DNA of 63,381 bases, filler included, from Collodictyon triciliatum (GCA_043381765.1; 15 parts of 15 records of this genome joined end to end with filler, not necessarily neighbours in it), one strand, 5' to 3'. Positions 27,790-57,251 are shown, counted from the first letter of the whole stretch. Notes: generated by a model not told the origin, from the sequence alone. Program-made: numbers and translations.

Positions 27790-28260
27790 ACTCTACTTTG
27801 CCCACAATACCAAATGACCCACTACTCTAGAATCTCTGGACAGTCATAAGGGGACATATGCTGTGGTCCTTATGGAGTGTGCGCGCATTCTCTCGCTCTA
27901 ATGATTCACCCGAACGAGAAATCGATGTATCCAGGCTTTCAAGCCTCGTGCAATACAACTTCCTGAACAGCCTGCTGAAACACGCCCGCATTATTCACTA
28001 CTCTGACCGCAAACAAAGAGAGATGTGGGAATGTGTCGTGCGATATCTCCCACAGCCCATCCAACCCCTGCTACCCACACAATCAATCAACCAGTTGGGA
28101 CGCCCACCTGACCAACCCGCTATCGCTGATTTCTTTCCAGTGCTACCCTCTCCACGGTAGTGTCTTCCCCTACTCGCGTTTGCTCTCTCCCATGCGCTCC
28201 CATCTCGCCCCGTTGTATGGCATAACCTCGCTGCATTTTGAATCGAATAAAAAAAAAAAC
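27790..28260 (+). mobile_element. LINE family A 3' end: ORF2 C-terminus, 3'UTR and poly(A)
   Basis: HMLWSLWSVR (W-x-x-W-x-x-R, typical of L1/Tx1 ORF2 ends), followed by a UTR ending tttgaatcgaataaaaaaaaaaa. Bases 28126-28235 recur at 48935-49044. Confidence 0.75.
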
Positions 28261-44756: not shown

Positions 44757-44856
44757 NNNNNNNNNNNNNNNNNNNNNNNNNNNNNNNNNNNNNNNNNNNN
44801 TTAATTAATTAANNNNNNNNNNNNNNNNNNNNNNNNNNNNNNNNNNNNNNNNNNNN

Positions 44857-44916
<60 letters not shown>

Positions 44917-45024
44917 CTTCTTGCCTCTCGAAGTACTTGGAGACGCGTCTTCCCCCTCTCCTACAACCCCTCCCGACTCTTGCCAAGTCCCTCCCTCCCC
45001 CAGAGAAGCCTCCTGCCACACATC

Positions 45025-46326
45025 ATGGCTGAGCAGGCGATAATCGAGGAGCTTTTCCTGGAGTATCGAGCCCAACTCATGGAGCTGACAAACACTAGAG
45101 CCCTGATCAACAACTTAACAGAGATTGCCTCGGAGAGCCGCATGTTCGCCGACGGCATTGCCAAGGTCATCATGGAGAGAATCCAAGAGGTAAGGGTCCA
45201 CAGCCATACCTCCCATCTGAGAGAACACCCTGCCCAGACCGCAGCGTCATGCGGACCTCTGGACTTGCCTCGTTGTGTACACTGTCATTCCCACTCGTTT
45301 TTTTCAGGATTAAGCTTATTGCATAACAGGTTCCGAGCCAGCTGTGCATCCCACCGCTCTATCTAATGGACTCCATAATCAAGAACGTCGGCGCACCGTA
45401 CTCGGACCTCTTCCGGCCGCACCTTGAAGCGCTTTTTATGCAAAAGTATAGCACTAGCCCACCCGAGCTGAGAAACACTCTTGGGCGTCTCCTTGCCACA
45501 TGGCGAGAATACTTTCCGGTCGAGCATCAGCGCATCTGCCAACACGTAGAGGCTATGAATCTTCGCCTGGGGAGTCAGCCACCAGCCGGCCCCAGAAACA
45601 CGCCCGCCAGCAACGGACACCATTTACATCAGCCCCAACTTGTGGGACAAACACCACCGCCAGCCCAAAACGTGGCGCAAGCACAGATTCTCTCCTACAC
45701 ACAAAGGGCTCCTCAACAAGGCCATCGCCCGGTCCAGCCGCACACTCATCAACAGCAGCATGTGGCGCAGGGCCAAGTCTACCCCCAAGGCCAGGTCGCC
45801 CCTGCCCAGCATTCTCAACGCTATCTTCAGCCGCAGCCTCAGGCCCCTGCCGCTGTTGCTCCCCGCCCCCTTTCTCATCACCAGAGTCACCACCAATCCA
45901 CGCCACAGCCACACAACCAAGCACAGCATCAGATGCAGCCTCATCCAGGAAACTACCTCTCAAAGACTCACGTCTCTGCCTCCGGTTACGCTCCAGCCGC
46001 AGCCACGCAATTCCAACCACATATGAGGCCTGCTGCTCCCGAGCCCCATTCCACGGCTACCCATATGGACAGGAAACTCAAGAACGGACATATAAACTCT
46101 TTTGAAGACACCGTCGCAAAGTACCAGAGAGTGGGTGATGCCTACAATTCGACTCATGGCTCTGCAATGGGCTCCAAGTTGCCCATGGCCTCGCTCTCGA
46201 ACACCCAAGCCCCATCAAAATCCCCACCTCTGGACTTGCATGCCCGAACATCTCCTGTGGTTGACATGAGACCTTCTCCTAATGACTTTAGCACAGAGAA
46301 CCTTCGAAGGTGAGTAAAAAATACAG

Positions 46327-46414
<88 letters not shown>

Positions 46415-47224
46415 TTTTCCCGTCTTTATTGCAGCCCCCGTTTGTTCCCCTCCTCTTTACAACATGGCTAGCCATTTGCATGCCTTGAGATACTTGTTAT
46501 CCCTTGTTGAAAGCCGTTAACACACCACTTCACTTGTCCGATTACCTAGGCGTAATCCAGATGCTATCTCGAGCATATACAAGAACCTTCCGTACCAATG
46601 CGGTCAGTGCGGATTTCGCTTCCAGTCCAAGGACAAGAATGATCGGCACCTGGACTGGCACTTTCGGAGAAATGCTGAGATGCTCGACCGACAAAAGCAA
46701 TATAGCTCCAGGAAGTTCTACCTTAAAGCTCAGGTACGAGACTATTTCAAACTTTTGTCTTCGTGAGCATGATGGTGCATGCAAAAATGAATAAATTAAT
46801 AAAAAAAAAAAATTATAATAATAAAAAAAACCGGAAGCAAACATTATTCAAATATTTATTCATTCTGTCAAACAGGACTGGCCAGATTATAAAGAGATGG
46901 AGGCAATATCGAACCTAGGTAGTTGCGTCATCCATGCGTATATACTGAATGAAAGCTTAACGAAGGGATATGGACATATGTGAATTTATCCTTCACTAAC
47001 CTAATGATCGCATCATCGAAACTTCAGAACCCCAGGACATTACAGAGCCCGACCAAGACCAGCCCCAAGAGCCATGTTGCCCGGTGAGCGAAGATCAAAC
47101 CAGTTGTGCGAAGTGTGGTGAAGAATTTGTTCGTATGTACGACGGTGACCGCGATGAATGGGTTTTTCGGGGTGTCGTTGTTCATCCAACACAGGCCATT
47201 CTAGTACATGCAAAGTGCCTATAG
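45025..47224 (+). CDS. PCF11: Pre-mRNA cleavage/termination factor Pcf11
   Basis: CID domain (LINNLTEIA..LYLMDSIIKNVG..LLATW), a Q/P/H-rich linker, zinc finger QCGQCGFRF..HLDWHFRRN..SRKFY, and a second finger CAKCGEEF..DEWVF..VHAKCL*. Five exons. Confidence 0.93.
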
Positions 47225-47539
47225 TATTATCACGTCCCTTTCTGTTATTCCTTCCTTCACATCCATTTCTTCAAAAAAAAAAAAAAAACAAAAAAAAAAA
47301 AAAACCAAAAAAAAAAAAAACGAAAAAAAAAAAAAAAAAAAAAAAATGGAGAAGAATACGAAAGTGAAGAGGGAATGAGAAAAAAAAATACCCCTACCAG
47401 AGTCCATCCAGATTTTGCCTGCTTTTTGTTCCTTTCTTCCCTTGTGAAGCCCTCACCAGGAAACGAACCAATGCATCCCCCAGTCCAAAACATTCCTTAG
47501 TCACTTAAAAATGAAACGAAATAAAATCTAAACTGACAA

Positions 47540-47621
47540 CCTTAGCTGCGCCACCTCGCTTCATAAACGGCATTTTTCGTGACAGGTTTTTATTTCACTG
47601 GGTGTGCGGGCGCAGCCAAGG
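47540..47621. other. GC-rich inverted repeat (hairpin) in intergenic DNA
   Basis: ccttagctgcgcc (47540-47552) pairs with ggcgcagccaagg (47609-47621) at 12 of 13 positions. Confidence 0.6.
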
Positions 47622-48088
47622 ACGCAAATTAAATATGGATTGACGAAAGCAGGAGCTTTGATGAATCCAAGAAAGAGCCTGAATGATAAATAGTATAATT
47701 AACATATAATAGGGTTAAAGTACTTTATAATAATCATTCTATTCCTTTAATTAATTTATATTTTCTTTTTATATGTGTAATATCATTAAAATCCAAAAAT
47801 GACAAACAGGCCCTTACCTTGGCCCAGACAAAAAAAAAAAAAAACCATAAACCTGCCACCAAACACGCATTTCAAAAAGCATACATTCCACACTTGCGAC
47901 GATAATCTTGTTGTTTGGGGCCGATGTGTTGATTTTCAGTCGCAATGGCTATACGGCCGTCCTTTCGAACTCGCCGAATCGGCTCGCAGCGTTTTGTTTC
48001 AAATCATCTATAAGAAAACTTGGTGTGTTTGTTTGCCATAAAGCATCCTTTTTGAGAGTATCGGTGAACGCTTGATTTTATGGATTGA

Positions 48089-48177
<89 letters not shown>

Positions 48178-48201
48178 TGGCTGATTGACTAATGTTTTAT
48201 T

Positions 48202-48209
48202 AAAATTGA
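48202..48209 (+). promoter_or_regulatory. AAAATTGA motif (Mimivirus early-promoter consensus) about 50 nt upstream of the Fanzor-like ATG
   Basis: Exact 8-mer, overlapped by a small perfect hairpin gaaaact-cggt-agttttc. The 8-mer also occurs by chance elsewhere in this AT-rich window. Confidence 0.3.
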
Positions 48210-48255
48210 AAACTCGGTAGTTTTCTAAAGGAAAAAGTAAAACAAAGACTTTCAG

Positions 48256-48936
48256 ATGAAGAAAAGAAAACGTCTTGAGTCTGAGAATCTAAAGTCTGTA
48301 AAACCAGAATATCGAAATGTGAAAACATCTTTAAAGTCGATTATAAAGAATGCAGATGACTATGATAAAATCAACGATACGGCTTTATTATGTCATCATT
48401 TAGTTACTGACAATTATCTGTTTGCAAGATGCTACATATTGAAATTATAATCACTCCAAACAATCGATGAAATTATTTGTTTCTTTTTTTTGTTCACTTT
48501 AAAGACAATCGGAGTAGTTTCACAAGATAGAACCACAAGTTTAAAAATCCAGATATGAGAGACAACATGTGACTTTTTATTCCAATGATTTTCGATTCCT
48601 TCTGTTCCGAGAAGAACGCTTTCCGTCGGTTGGACTGTCTCATGTATTACCGTGCTTGGCGAAGCAAATGTTAGCAGCTTATCATAATAACATTAAGGAA
48701 CATTTTGTAAAGAGGTCTGCGCTTTATAAATCAAAAAGTTCCTAAAATGAGAGGATATGGCGGAAGCTATTAAAAAGGCGGAGTTACGAAAGTTAAAAAA
48801 AAAAAAAAAGAAATCTTCAAGAAACTCGAAATACTGGAACAATATAAAGAATGGACTAAAACATATTTGCATCGTATCATTCCCAGCGATATTGTAAAAG
48901 GTATCGAATATGACGTCAAAGTCAATCCAAACAACT
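48256..48936 (+). pseudogene. Decayed Fanzor-like (TnpB-derived RNA-guided endonuclease, Fanzor1-type) N-terminal region
   Basis: Across stops and frameshifts: YRNVKTSLKSIIKN..KINDTALLCHHLVTDNYLFARCYIL*..QTIDE..LKTIG..FYSNDF..GLSHVLPCLAKQMLAAYHNNIKEHFVKR/LRFIN..ELRKLKK..YKEWTKTYLHRIIPSDIVKGIEYDVKVNP. Intronless; RuvC part absent from this contig. Confidence 0.75.
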
Positions 48937-49044
48937 GATTTCTTTCCAGTGCTAGCCTCTCCACGGTAGTGTCTTCTCCTACTCGCGTTTGCTCTCTCCC
49001 ATGCGCTCCCATCCCGCCCCTTTGTATGGCATAACCTCGCTACA
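48935..49044 (+). mobile_element. 5'-truncated LINE family A 3'UTR inserted into the Fanzor-like ORF
   Basis: 110 bp matching 28126-28235 with 5 mismatches by manual comparison. Confidence 0.88.
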
Positions 49045-49145
49045 NNNNNNNNNNNNNNNNNNNNNNNNNNNNNNNNNNNNNNNNNNNNTTAATTAATTAA
49101 NNNNNNNNNNNNNNNNNNNNNNNNNNNNNNNNNNNNNNNNNNNNC

Positions 49146-50510
49146 ACGAAAGACTCGCAATCATGCTATGCTTGTCCAAAAGGCACAATCAACTCAAACT
49201 CCGGCTCATATGGAAGCTCATCATGTTATGAGTGTCCACAAGGCACTTGGAATGATAGAGAAGGTCAAGCATCATGCATATCATGCCCAGCTGGGACATT
49301 CAACAACAAAACTGGCTCATTTGATCAATCATCATGCATCTCCTGTCCAAATGGAAGCTACAGCTCAGAAAGAAGCTCATCATGCAGCTTGTGTTTATCA
49401 GGATTCTTTCAAAAAGAAGGAATCACGAAAGACTCGCAATCATGCTATGCTTGTCCAAAAGGCACAATCAACTCAAACTCCGGCTCATATGGAAGCTCAT
49501 CATGTTATGAGTGTCCACAAGGCACTTGGAATGATAGAGAAGGTCAAGCATCATGCACATCATGCCCAGCTGGGACATTCAGTTTTGAAATTGGCGCATT
49601 CAACGAATCATCGTGCATTTCATGTCCGAATGGAAGCTACAGCTCGAGAGGAAGCTCATCATGCAGCTTATGCTTATCAGGATTCTATCAAAAAGAAGGC
49701 ATCACAAAAGACTCAAAATCATGCTATGCTTGTCCAAAAGGCACATTCAACTCGAACTCCGGCTCATATGGAAATAAGTCATGTATCGAATGTCCACAAG
49801 GCACTTGGAATGATAGAGATGGTCAGGCATCATGCACATCATGTCCAGCTGGGACATTCAGTTTTGAAACTGGCGCATATGACCCCTCATCGTGCATTTC
49901 ATGTCCAGATGGAAGCTACAGCTCAGAAAGAAGCTCATCATGCAGCTTATGCTTATCAGGATTCTATCAAAAAGAAGGCATCACAAAAGACTCCAAATCA
50001 TGCTACGCTTGTACAAAAGGCACATTCAACACAAACTCCGGCTCATATGGAAGCTCATCATGTTATGAGTGTCCACAAGGCACATGGAATCATAGAGAAG
50101 GTCAAGCATCATGCACATCATGCCCAGCTGGGACATTCAGTTTTGAAATTGGCGCATTCAACGAATCATCGTGCATTTCATGTCCAAATGGAAGCTACAG
50201 CTCAGCCGGAAGCTCATCATGCAGCCTATGCTCATCAGGATACTATCAAAAAGAAGGAATCACGAAAGACTCGAAATCATGCTATGCTTGTCCAAAAGGC
50301 ACATACAACTCAAACTCCGGCTCATATGGAAGCTCATCATGTTATGAGTGTCCACAAGGCACTTGGAATGATAGAGAAGGTCAAGCATCATGCATGTCAT
50401 GCCCAGCTGGTACCTTCAACAACAAAACTGGTTCATTTGACCCCTCATCGTGCATTCCATGTCCAAATGGAAGCTACAGCTCAGAAAGAAGCGTATCATG
50501 CAACTCATGT
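49146..50510 (+). repeat. 279-bp (93-aa) coding tandem repeat, about 5 copies
   Basis: Units start at 49146, 49425, 49704, 49983 and 50262. Confidence 0.93.
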
Positions 50511-52397
50511 CCTATTCGCTCAACGACAATTAGAGAAGGTTCTCAATCAATCGATCAGTGCAAATGCATTTATTCCTATATATCATTCAATGGTGCTTGC
50601 ACGTGTCCTCCAGGAAAATTTGAGGATGGAAGTGAGTGTGTTCCGTGCAGATTTGGCTCATACAAACCAACAAACGGCACAAATTTCTGCCTATCTTGTG
50701 GTGATAAATTTACGACAAAAAATTACGGTTCGATGGATTCAACAGATTGTATTTGCAGTACAGGATTTGAATTAAGAAATTCCACTTGTGAATGCAAACC
50801 AGGATGGTATGAAAAGCAGGAAAACTGCTACGAATGCCCTCCGGGTACTTATAGCGAATACTATGGCCAAAACTATTGCAAAGATTGTCCAATCAATTCG
50901 TACACAAACGTGACAGGAGCCCTCAGTATTAAAAGTTGTATATGTATACCATCATCATTTTTAGATGTCATAACCCAACAATGCCTTTCTTGTCCTGTGG
51001 GAATGGTATGCGACGGGAGCAGCAAATTTCACGCTGCACCTGGTTACTGGGCTGTTGAAAACTCTGATGGTTCGTATTCCACCTACAGTTGCCTGAATAG
51101 CAAGGCCTGTGCTGGAGAAAATAAGTGCGCTGAGGGATATACTGGAACTCTGTGCAGCGCATGCGAGGAAGGGTTTTCGCAAAAGGGAGACGAATGTTTA
51201 CCCAGTCCCGAGACAGGAGGTAGTGAAATTTTGGTTATATTGAGCTACGTGCTCCCCATCGGGTTTTATATTTACATGGTGACTTCAATAGACGAACCAA
51301 AGAATGAAAGCATAGGGACATTCAAGATCTTGGTAACCCACTTTCATATTCTGACCATATTGTCTAATTTTGATCTGAATTGGAGCCTGGGGGCCTTGTT
51401 TGTGATGAAAATACCTACTGCTTTCATGTTGTCGCTCTCTGTGGATACATTCCCGATGGAATACCAGTTTAGTTTGAGTATATATGACAGGGTACTATAT
51501 GCCATGCTGACGCCGTTGATACTTGTCGGAGTGACTTTTGTCATATCCATCTCGATGTTTCTCGTCGATAAATTCAAGTCCAAGAGCAGACAGGCGGAAG
51601 AAGTGTCATTTTCTTTAACAATGACGAAAAATATTCTTGTGATGCTTTTCTTTGTTCACCCTCTTGTCATCTCCACTGTGGCCAGTGTGTACCCATGTGA
51701 ATCTATAGGAGACTCGAGTTACTTAAGGATGGACCGATCGGTAGAATGCTACGACTCCTCTCACGATACATGGAAGGACAGAGCAACAATCTACATCGTT
51801 GTATACGGATTCCTTGCTCCTTTCCTTCTGTGGGGCTTCATGTTTGCCAAAAGAAACTCAATCACCATCTCCAACTCTCGGACAAACAAAATCTTGTCAT
51901 TTTTTGTCTGTGGCTACAAGGACGGAGTTTATTACTGGGAAGTACCCAATATGCTCCTGAAGCTTTTCATGGCCATCATAAGCTTCTACATTTCATCTTC
52001 CTTGCAAATATACTTTGGTCTATGGCTGATTTTTATTGCCACGTTGACCGTGCAGTTTGTCAGGCCCTTCCTTGTTGAATCTTTGAAGACTCAACAGACC
52101 CTGTCATCAATAGTTCTGTATTTCACTCTGATGTTGGGCATCATATTCCGGTACACTAGTATGAGCGATGCAACAAAGACATTTTTGGTTGTCATGATTG
52201 GAGTTTCCAATGGAGCGCTTGGTTTGTTTTTATTTTGCATCTCTGGCCCTTCGTTTTTAAGGACCCCAACACAGAACATGTCCGAGTACATCAGCTCGTC
52301 TAAGGCTTCCCTTGGTGTCCAATTCTTTGGTGACCAAAGAGAGATTACAAGAGAAATGAATACTCTCGATTCGACAACAGTGGGTGTGGACCTTTAG
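49146..52397 (+). CDS. Intronless Cys-rich surface protein: GCC2/GCC3 (ephrin-receptor-like) repeats plus multi-pass TM C-terminus; 5' partial
   Basis: The frame is open from the contig start to TAG for 1083 sense codons. CxxCPxGT(Y/F/W) repeats, CAEGYTGTLCSAC, KILVTHFHIL, C..YLRMDRSVECY, GYKDGVYYWE, RPF, and about 9 hydrophobic segments. Confidence 0.92.
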   Translation, partial: TKDSQSCYACPKGTINSNSGSYGSSSCYECPQGTWNDREGQASCISCPAGTFNNKTGSFDQSSCISCPNGSYSSERSSSCSLCLSGFFQKEGITKDSQSCYACPKGTINSNSGSYGSSSCYECPQGTWNDREGQASCTSCPAGTFSFEIGAFNESSCISCPNGSYSSRGSSSCSLCLSGFYQKEGITKDSKSCYACPKGTFNSNSGSYGNKSCIECPQGTWNDRDGQASCTSCPAGTFSFETGAYDPSSCISCPDGSYSSERSSSCSLCLSGFYQKEGITKDSKSCYACTKGTFNTNSGSYGSSSCYECPQGTWNHREGQASCTSCPAGTFSFEIGAFNESSCISCPNGSYSSAGSSSCSLCSSGYYQKEGITKDSKSCYACPKGTYNSNSGSYGSSSCYECPQGTWNDREGQASCMSCPAGTFNNKTGSFDPSSCIPCPNGSYSSERSVSCNSCPIRSTTIREGSQSIDQCKCIYSYISFNGACTCPPGKFEDGSECVPCRFGSYKPTNGTNFCLSCGDKFTTKNYGSMDSTDCICSTGFELRNSTCECKPGWYEKQENCYECPPGTYSEYYGQNYCKDCPINSYTNVTGALSIKSCICIPSSFLDVITQQCLSCPVGMVCDGSSKFHAAPGYWAVENSDGSYSTYSCLNSKACAGENKCAEGYTGTLCSACEEGFSQKGDECLPSPETGGSEILVILSYVLPIGFYIYMVTSIDEPKNESIGTFKILVTHFHILTILSNFDLNWSLGALFVMKIPTAFMLSLSVDTFPMEYQFSLSIYDRVLYAMLTPLILVGVTFVISISMFLVDKFKSKSRQAEEVSFSLTMTKNILVMLFFVHPLVISTVASVYPCESIGDSSYLRMDRSVECYDSSHDTWKDRATIYIVVYGFLAPFLLWGFMFAKRNSITISNSRTNKILSFFVCGYKDGVYYWEVPNMLLKLFMAIISFYISSSLQIYFGLWLIFIATLTVQFVRPFLVESLKTQQTLSSIVLYFTLMLGIIFRYTSMSDATKTFLVVMIGVSNGALGLFLFCISGPSFLRTPTQNMSEYISSSKASLGVQFFGDQREITREMNTLDSTTVGVDL

Positions 52398-54094: not shown

Positions 54095-57251
<3,157 letters not shown>

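Follow-up and report, generated by a model that had tools for sequence, protein, structure and literature searches.

Positions 48256-48932 of the window, i.e. of the whole 63,381-nucleotide stretch of Collodictyon triciliatum DNA (GCA_043381765.1) that was analysed, very probably represent what is left of a Fanzor1 gene that is dead and has lost its 3' part. Within the TnpB family of transposon-borne, omegaRNA-guided RuvC DNA nucleases, Fanzor1 proteins form the branch of eukaryotes and viruses. The remnant (677 bp, plus strand) is colinear, over three reading frames, with residues 1-222 of a 648-aa protein designated P0004.

The window is composed of approximately 15 contigs, each of about 4.2-4.3 kb, chained by N44-TTAATTAATTAA-N44 linkers, as seen from the N-run table (for example, 44757-44856 and 49045-49144). 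Since separate contigs are chained in this way, features placed on either side of a linker are not physically linked. The sequence after position 49044 belongs to another contig and is therefore uninformative on the locus of the fragment. The contig bearing the fragment (44857-49044) is eukaryotic nuclear DNA, as judged from the intron-bearing gene that it carries (45025-47224, plus strand; the end is approximate). This host gene has GT-AG introns, an exon encoding a CID domain and a zinc-finger exon, an architecture which we take to be PCF11-like. The CID-domain exon matches Pfam family PF04818 barely at the cut-off (E = 5.8e-5), the score being borderline because this exon holds just half of the domain, and a comparison of the exon with longer proteins gave no match at E ≤ 0.001. 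The intergenic and intronic DNA contains AAT/ATT trinucleotide microsatellites (46330-46415, 48084-48176 and 55700-56480; one of about 0.8 kb) and poly-A-rich tracts (47270-47350). A 1002-aa open frame (49389-52397, plus strand) was also observed in the window. It encodes ten Ephrin_rec_like cysteine-rich repeats (E = 3e-77) with near-identical 93-aa repeat units, and a hydrophobic, multi-pass C-terminal half.

In a tblastn comparison of P0004 with the whole 63-kb window, residues 1-96, 105-153 and 191-222 of the protein were matched colinearly, with a joint E-value of 1e-53. A profile built from 29 relatives matched exactly three of the 2549 six-frame pieces of the window, in order, at profile positions 2-65 (E = 3e-15), 106-155 (E = 1e-11) and 177-224 (E = 5e-11), while the next-best piece reached only E = 0.34. 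No other match or paralogue of P0004 was revealed in the 63-kb window by either search. The use of protein profiles had been proposed in an earlier note on this DNA, made from the sequence alone; the profile of the 29 relatives recovered the fragment, and Pfam did not, as none of the five window pieces submitted to it scored above the cut-off (the best hit, E = 0.033, was a DUF). A blastn search of the region against phage records yielded chance matches only (at most 5% query coverage, E ≥ 0.3). In a frameshift-aware alignment, 132 of 219 residues were identical to P0004 over its residues 1-222, as were 100 of 118 to P0001 and 98 of 119 to P0002, two shorter relatives. The closest full-length protein found among 5.8 billion clusters (P0004/P0007) is only 60% identical to the window copy.

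The earlier note had described an intronless frame of about 680 bp, ridden with stops and frameshifts, within positions 48176-49044. All of the motifs that it listed are present, in the order given, in three plus-strand frames of this region, and the 64-aa ORF fragment that it mentioned corresponds to 48256-48450. The coding similarity is confined to 48256-48932. At position 48176 nothing but an (ATT)n microsatellite (48084-48176) ends, located 80 bp upstream of the ATG, and the last part of the span, 48935-49044, is unrelated to Fanzor1.

The following pieces of the fragment, all on the plus strand, can be distinguished: (i) piece 1a (48256-48447; the first of the three profile matches), comprising the ATG and residues 1-64, with the basic MKKRKR start, the first WED strand and the first REC helices; (ii) piece 1b (48451-48568), which corresponds in the frameshift-aware alignment to residues ~65-104 and contains two frameshifts; (iii) piece 2 (48569-48715; the second profile match), corresponding to residues 105-153 and constituting the best-preserved stretch, 71% identical to P0004 and 90% identical to P0001; (iv) pieces 3 and 4 (48716-48795), placed by the frameshift-aware alignment in two further frames and equivalent to residues ~154-185; and (v) piece 5 (48796-48932; the third profile match), equivalent to residues ~186-222. 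The last piece ends at the conserved YDVKVNPN, with the last residue showing homology, and the relatives go on with ...KYIPC....

The fragment can be read without any intron, and the frameshift-aware alignment revealed one in-frame TAA and five frameshifts, in agreement with the description given in the earlier note. The stop codon (48448-48450), found also by tblastn, occupies a position at which the relatives have a residue; it arose by substitution and involves no indel. The frameshifts are placed near 48535 and 48570 (piece 1b), near 48716 and 48750 (pieces 3 and 4) and near 48796, where piece 5 is entered. Several of them lie at or beside short A/T runs (those near 48535, 48570 and 48750), and the shift at 48796 falls in an A13 run. 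The shift at 48716 is outside any homopolymer. A domesticated REC-domain gene was also considered, and this candidate was dropped because of the stop codon and the frameshifts.

In the structural model of P0004, residues 1-222 comprise a disordered basic tail (MKKRKR...), a strand (19-25) and helices (33-219), with pLDDT values mostly of 80-95. Comparison with the residue labels given for SpuFz1 of Spizellomyces punctatus in PMC10432273, where WED is marked by H21/T22/K25, REC by R96-S269, WED again from R291, and RuvC by D383, E541 and D606, places the fragment, as modelled, over the first strand of WED and the greater part of the helical REC domain. Nothing of the second WED part (with the TDG motif), RuvC, the zinc finger or the 3' guide-RNA region remains in the window copy: the DPG aspartate, the alternative glutamate, the C4 zinc finger with RD, and TDG all lie beyond residue 222, at which the homology ends. 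An Rfam search of the contig carrying the fragment returned nothing. RNA-guided DNA cleavage is impossible for this copy because it has no RuvC domain. Judged from its sequence, the copy is functionally dead, with neither a nuclease nor a guide RNA possible, and this holds whatever the status of the frameshifts, since all of these parts downstream of REC are missing.

The sequence comparisons give the Fanzor1 identity strong support, and we hold it with high confidence. The assignment is transitive through P0004, since the window pieces taken alone do not match solved Fanzor1 proteins significantly: piece 2 has GtFz1 as its top match among PDB chains, yet with E = 0.25, and piece 1a gave no Fanzor match in the PDB. 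A search for longer proteins with the best-preserved region (48545-48742) yielded 5 proteins among 12 candidates, all of them Fanzor-like sequences, i.e. the short P0001-P0003 (82-90% identity), P0005 (331 aa) and P0004 (648 aa, 71% identity). When P0004 was compared with all PDB chains using phmmer, it matched GtFz1 of Guillardia theta (9cer, E = 2.1e-28), PpFz1 of Parasitella parasitica (9cf0, E = 2.7e-24) and SpuFz1 (8gkh, E = 3.7e-23), and both halves of the protein were aligned, including the N-terminal residues 17-272. The earlier suggestion of an N-terminal Fanzor1-type fossil is borne out by this two-step link. Full-length homologues without a RuvC domain had been named as evidence that would speak against it; the relatives carry both the RuvC triad and a zinc finger, and the Fanzor1 assignment therefore stands.

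An AlphaFold2 model of P0004, obtained from a 29-sequence alignment (pLDDT 76.1, pTM 0.66), pointed to the same group. Its top PDB matches were seven Fanzor1 chains (E = 3e-26 to 1e-23; query-normalised TM 0.59-0.68), in structural alignments with just 18-20% identity, while the TM value was 0.20 (E = 7.5e-5) against the TnpB of ISDra2 (8h1j) and 0.19 (E = 1.4e-4) against the mimivirus Fanzor2 ApmFz2 (9b0l). As modelled, P0004 does not have the Fanzor2/TnpB identity. Fanzor2 and TnpB belong to the same superfamily and likewise combine a RuvC nuclease with a zinc finger and a guide RNA derived from the 3' end of the element, but the P0004 family differs from them in having the TDG motif and a large REC domain, which are described as Fanzor1 hallmarks in PMC10711439.

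The residues invariant in all 29 relatives are T312-D313-G314, G362/D364-P365-G366, G521/W523, E555, the zinc-finger cysteines C562/C565 and C587/C590, and R603-D604, with the contexts G521-[DN]-W523 and E555-x-x-[TS]-S-x-x-C. A regular expression for the ordered TDG/GxDPG/G-[DN]-W/alternative-Glu/zinc-finger/RD signature was applied to 121 near-full-length proteins among the matches listed (P0004, P0007 and P0009-P0127) and was satisfied by 120 of them; the one exception lacks only an exact TDG. These features correspond to published accounts of Fanzor1, in which DPG, a RuvC domain with an alternative glutamate, a Fanzor1-specific TDG in WED and an enlarged REC are described (PMC10711439), the canonical RuvC-II glutamate is replaced by glycine or proline and compensated by a glutamate elsewhere (PMC10530073), and the motif D...[TS][TS]xx[C4]...RD is given (PMC3627910). 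The family thus shares with the solved Fanzor1 proteins the DPG aspartate, the displaced glutamate, the RD aspartate, the C4 zinc finger and the large helical REC, and the window pieces correspond to the N-terminal WED/REC part of these proteins. The window copy differs from them in its many lesions and in having nothing past residue 222. Pfam revealed nothing relevant on P0001-P0005; the precomputed label given in the database is PF26935.

Of 7037 candidates in the search with P0004 at similar lengths, 243 proteins matched at E ≤ 1e-5; the best 120 of the 243 are all 494-661 aa long, and one of them bears the UniRef name 'Transposase, viral metagenome'. A metagenome scan with P0001 gave 307 pattern-matching stretches, from which 2 distant relatives (36-42% identity) were confirmed. 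Among the closer sequences, P0003 has an out-of-frame beginning, and P0005 and P0008 have tails that diverge beyond approximately residue 325. These three look like conceptual translations of broken copies, and P0001-P0003, which originate from contigs of only 626-740 nt, look as if they were likewise derived from such copies. Because the close copies look broken and the nearest complete protein is only 60% identical, the sequences suggest an old, multi-copy family, decayed for the most part, in this organism or its relatives.

The Fanzor1 homology stops at 48932, about 110 bp short of the contig end. The unrelated tail (48935-49044, plus strand), which runs to that end, is a copy of positions 28126-28235 on another contig of the window (95.5% identity over 110 nt, E = 7.6e-46), and these positions hold the final 11 codons of an ORF (27831-28157; no Pfam match) together with its 3' UTR. 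This sharing suggests a duplicated gene end, or allelic or paralogous contigs, and the junction at 48932/48935 is either a true deletion or rearrangement or an assembly join within a repeat. It had been expected that the RuvC half and the omegaRNA of the copy would lie beyond the contig break; because the homology switches inside the contig, with the copy of the other gene beginning before the break, the RuvC half is not simply past it.

The ends of the carrier element, sought as proposed in the earlier note, could not be recognised in the flanks of the window copy. Neither an inverted-repeat end nor a transposase remnant was found upstream of the fragment, and no target site duplication (TSD) or meaningful inverted repeat was detectable around it. 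A search of the window for the core of the viral terminal inverted repeat (TIR, see below), allowing up to 6 mismatches, revealed no TIR-like motif, and a tblastn comparison of the window with the transposase and the small upstream ORFs of viral locus L004 gave nothing better than E = 0.14. With no TIR, TSD or transposase remnant at the window copy, the type of its carrier element is deduced from relatives that are 38-47% identical to P0004.

These relatives were identified in viral contigs. A scan of IMG/VR with the alignment matched at least 596 stretches, of which at least 465 were confirmed, and 80 loci with 38-47% identity to P0004, on contigs of up to 289 kb, were kept. Giant-virus MAG names are attached to 34 of these 80 loci. 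A gene for a fused mRNA-capping enzyme and cap N7-methyltransferase (E = 4e-15 and 5e-31), of a kind typical of giant viruses, flanks the Fanzor gene of locus L004, which fits a giant-virus origin. The closest matches in a fold search of BFVD were proteins of Hyperionvirus, Homavirus, Yasminevirus, Klosneuvirus, Gaeavirus and Tetraselmis virus (E = 4e-39 to 2e-19). The P0004 relatives fall within Fanzor1 and are abundant in giant-virus contigs; they do not form an obscure family, and the word 'uncharacterised' used in the earlier note does not suit a group that occurs in Tc1/mariner elements of a published type.

In an all-against-all blastn of 50 loci, unrelated contigs remained similar for about 480 bp upstream of the match and for about 190 bp downstream of it, where the similarity stopped, and alignment of these boundaries revealed a 32-bp TIR with TA on both sides. 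In a motif search of 41 loci, the right end was found in 37 and both ends in 18. The 18 two-ended elements are 2186-2626 bp long, and 15 of them measure 2368-2398 bp. In the subgroup closest to P0004 (L001 and L002/L004), the unit is 3.3 kb long, has its own inverted ends and contains a divergent 343-aa ORF with DDE_3 (E = 1.5e-15) and HTH domains. By its domains this ORF is predicted to encode an IS630/Tc1-mariner-type transposase; the transposase neighbouring the Fanzor gene in L004 is of the DDE_3 type and not a serine recombinase, unlike in the IS607-type context of Fanzor2/TnpB.

Several further features of the viral loci were observed. The stretch from the left TIR to the start of the Fanzor gene holds a small Lys/Glu-rich ORF with no Pfam match (97 aa at L016:5598-5891; also L004:5442-5948), whose own beginning is conserved among the loci when their left ends are aligned. 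In the two viral loci nearest to P0004, the Fanzor gene has a higher G+C content than its locus (0.48 vs 0.35 for L001:6001-7860 and 0.42 vs 0.33 for L002:6001-7788), which hints at a recent arrival from a GC-richer genome, whereas in eight other viral loci its G+C content is like that of the locus. At L036:7583-7823 the right TIR is interrupted by a segment of about 60 nt with short hairpins, and a canonical TIR end lies further downstream.

Folding of the 3' region, another check proposed in the earlier note, found no object in the window copy, and was informative for the viral relatives. For 28 of the 36 distinct right ends, the terminal 200 nt were folded; the other eight had been left out beforehand, four because of atypical spacing and four as near-duplicate or edge loci. 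The fold comprises 27 predicted consensus pairs, 5 of them with compensatory changes (for example, CG 15 / AU 7 / UA 6 at one pair and CG 24 / GC 4 at another). In one predicted stem, the TIR end is base-paired to a TTTACA box upstream of it, in accordance with PMC10711439, where TIRs are said to contribute to the guide-RNA scaffolds of Fanzor1. The conserved, apparently structured 3' end of the viral elements is consistent with a candidate omegaRNA.

Similar arrangements have been published. A mariner-associated Fanzor1, PGv-1 with Mariner-2_PGv, was described in 2013 from Phaeocystis globosa virus (PMC3627910). In an endogenous giant virus of Chlamydomonas, a 2024 preprint reports three Fanzor1 families (A-C) accompanied by IS630/Tc1-mariner transposases, as well as Fanzor-only and fragmentary arrangements; it also reports a Fanzor fragment on a host chromosome with 80% nucleotide identity to a viral copy (10.1101/2024.09.03.611062). 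Compared by description, the viral relatives of P0004 resemble these systems in occupying TA-flanked TIR elements, some of them Fanzor-only (~2.4 kb) and some with a DDE_3/HTH transposase (3.3 kb); the window copy differs in showing neither TIR nor transposase. A literature check of limited extent found no published description of the 2.4-kb element. Partial or decayed copies are a normal state of Fanzors, as judged from the counts given for S. punctatus in PMC10432273, where 19 of 42 Fanzor loci are full-length and the others partial, and 3655 unique Fanzor sequences were reported in PMC10530073. The window remnant differs from the partial loci of S. punctatus in being isolated, without recognisable ends and without a known intact sibling in its genome, and it is a further instance of a known situation, an ordinary Fanzor1 pseudogene fragment.

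The following history may be proposed for the locus. An intronless, Fanzor1-bearing, TA-flanked and TIR-bounded element associated with Tc1/mariner, of a kind frequent in giant viruses of protists, would have inserted about 1 kb downstream of the host gene. The copy would then have decayed neutrally, gaining the stop codon and the five frameshifts, and would have lost its 3' two-thirds by a deletion or rearrangement that joined the fragment to the duplicated 3' end of another gene. In intact relatives, as published for Fanzor1, the protein would bind RNA from the right end of the element, TIR included, and would cut guide-matching DNA beside a TAM. A wider reading of the fragment, as a footprint of exchange with Klosneuvirus-like giant viruses in which a TA-targeting Fanzor1 element jumped or was delivered into the nucleus, is put forward tentatively, as a possibility that falls short of being probable. 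Under it, P0004/P0007 would represent a still-active, compact lineage of the host group or its viruses, with the TIR included in the guide scaffold, and the clade of the element would rank with the most common mobile elements of giant-virus genomes from freshwater.

The fragment might instead be the leftover of an integrated giant-virus genome, i.e. an endogenous viral element, and not an independent transposon insertion. The many relatives in IMG/VR viral contigs and the giant-virus MAG names among them, the Klosneuvirus-like structural neighbours and the Chlamydomonas host fragments reported as near-identical to viral copies (10.1101/2024.09.03.611062) all accord with such an origin, and the fragment is AT-rich (33% GC) in comparison with the long exon of the host gene (57%). 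The surrounding intergenic DNA is, however, equally AT-rich (32% GC), and composition therefore does not discriminate between host and virus. The flanks are host-like, with the CID-domain gene 1 kb upstream and the duplicated host gene end downstream, and no other viral gene is present on the contig; we consider this origin rather unlikely. Still less probable is a truncation produced by the assembly, with the RuvC half and the 3' RNA region of the same copy placed elsewhere in the genome. The assembly is very fragmented (window contigs of ~4.2 kb), and the contig ends 110 bp past the junction, within sequence present at least twice in the assembly, but the switch in sequence occurs inside the contig and not at its end, and the profile search of the 63-kb window found no piece of the C-terminal two-thirds on the other contigs. 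Even if the junction were an artefact, the copy would keep its stop codon and five frameshifts.

That these lesions are homopolymer sequencing errors in an intact or nearly intact gene is very improbable. Several of the five shifts do occur at or beside A/T runs, the A13 run at ~48796 included, but the substitution at 48448 and the shift at 48716 are not errors of this kind, the adjoining host exons are open across 328 and 1098 codons despite their own homopolymers, and the homology stops at residue 222 of about 648. We give practically no credence to membership in another family of proteins that has only an N-terminal domain in common with Fanzor1. The silence of Pfam on the fragments and on P0004 would be compatible with it, whereas the near-universal RuvC and zinc-finger signature among the matches listed, the lengths of 494-661 aa among the best 120 of 243 matches and the recovery of only Fanzor-like sequences with the best-preserved piece all argue against it.

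The fragment by itself matters little, as Fanzors have been recorded in thousands of genomes, eukaryotic and viral, and partial copies are common. Its value is that of a marker: it shows that a Fanzor1 element once established itself in the host lineage, one for which the nearest intact relatives occur mainly in giant viruses. It is also one more observation in line with the published idea of selfish elements being ferried between protists by giant viruses. The abundant, tightly defined ~2.4-kb giant-virus element with 32-bp TIRs, a side result of this analysis, may be more useful than the fossil: the viral elements with a conserved structured 3' end and the complete signature are candidates for tests of natural Fanzor1 guide RNAs and TAMs.
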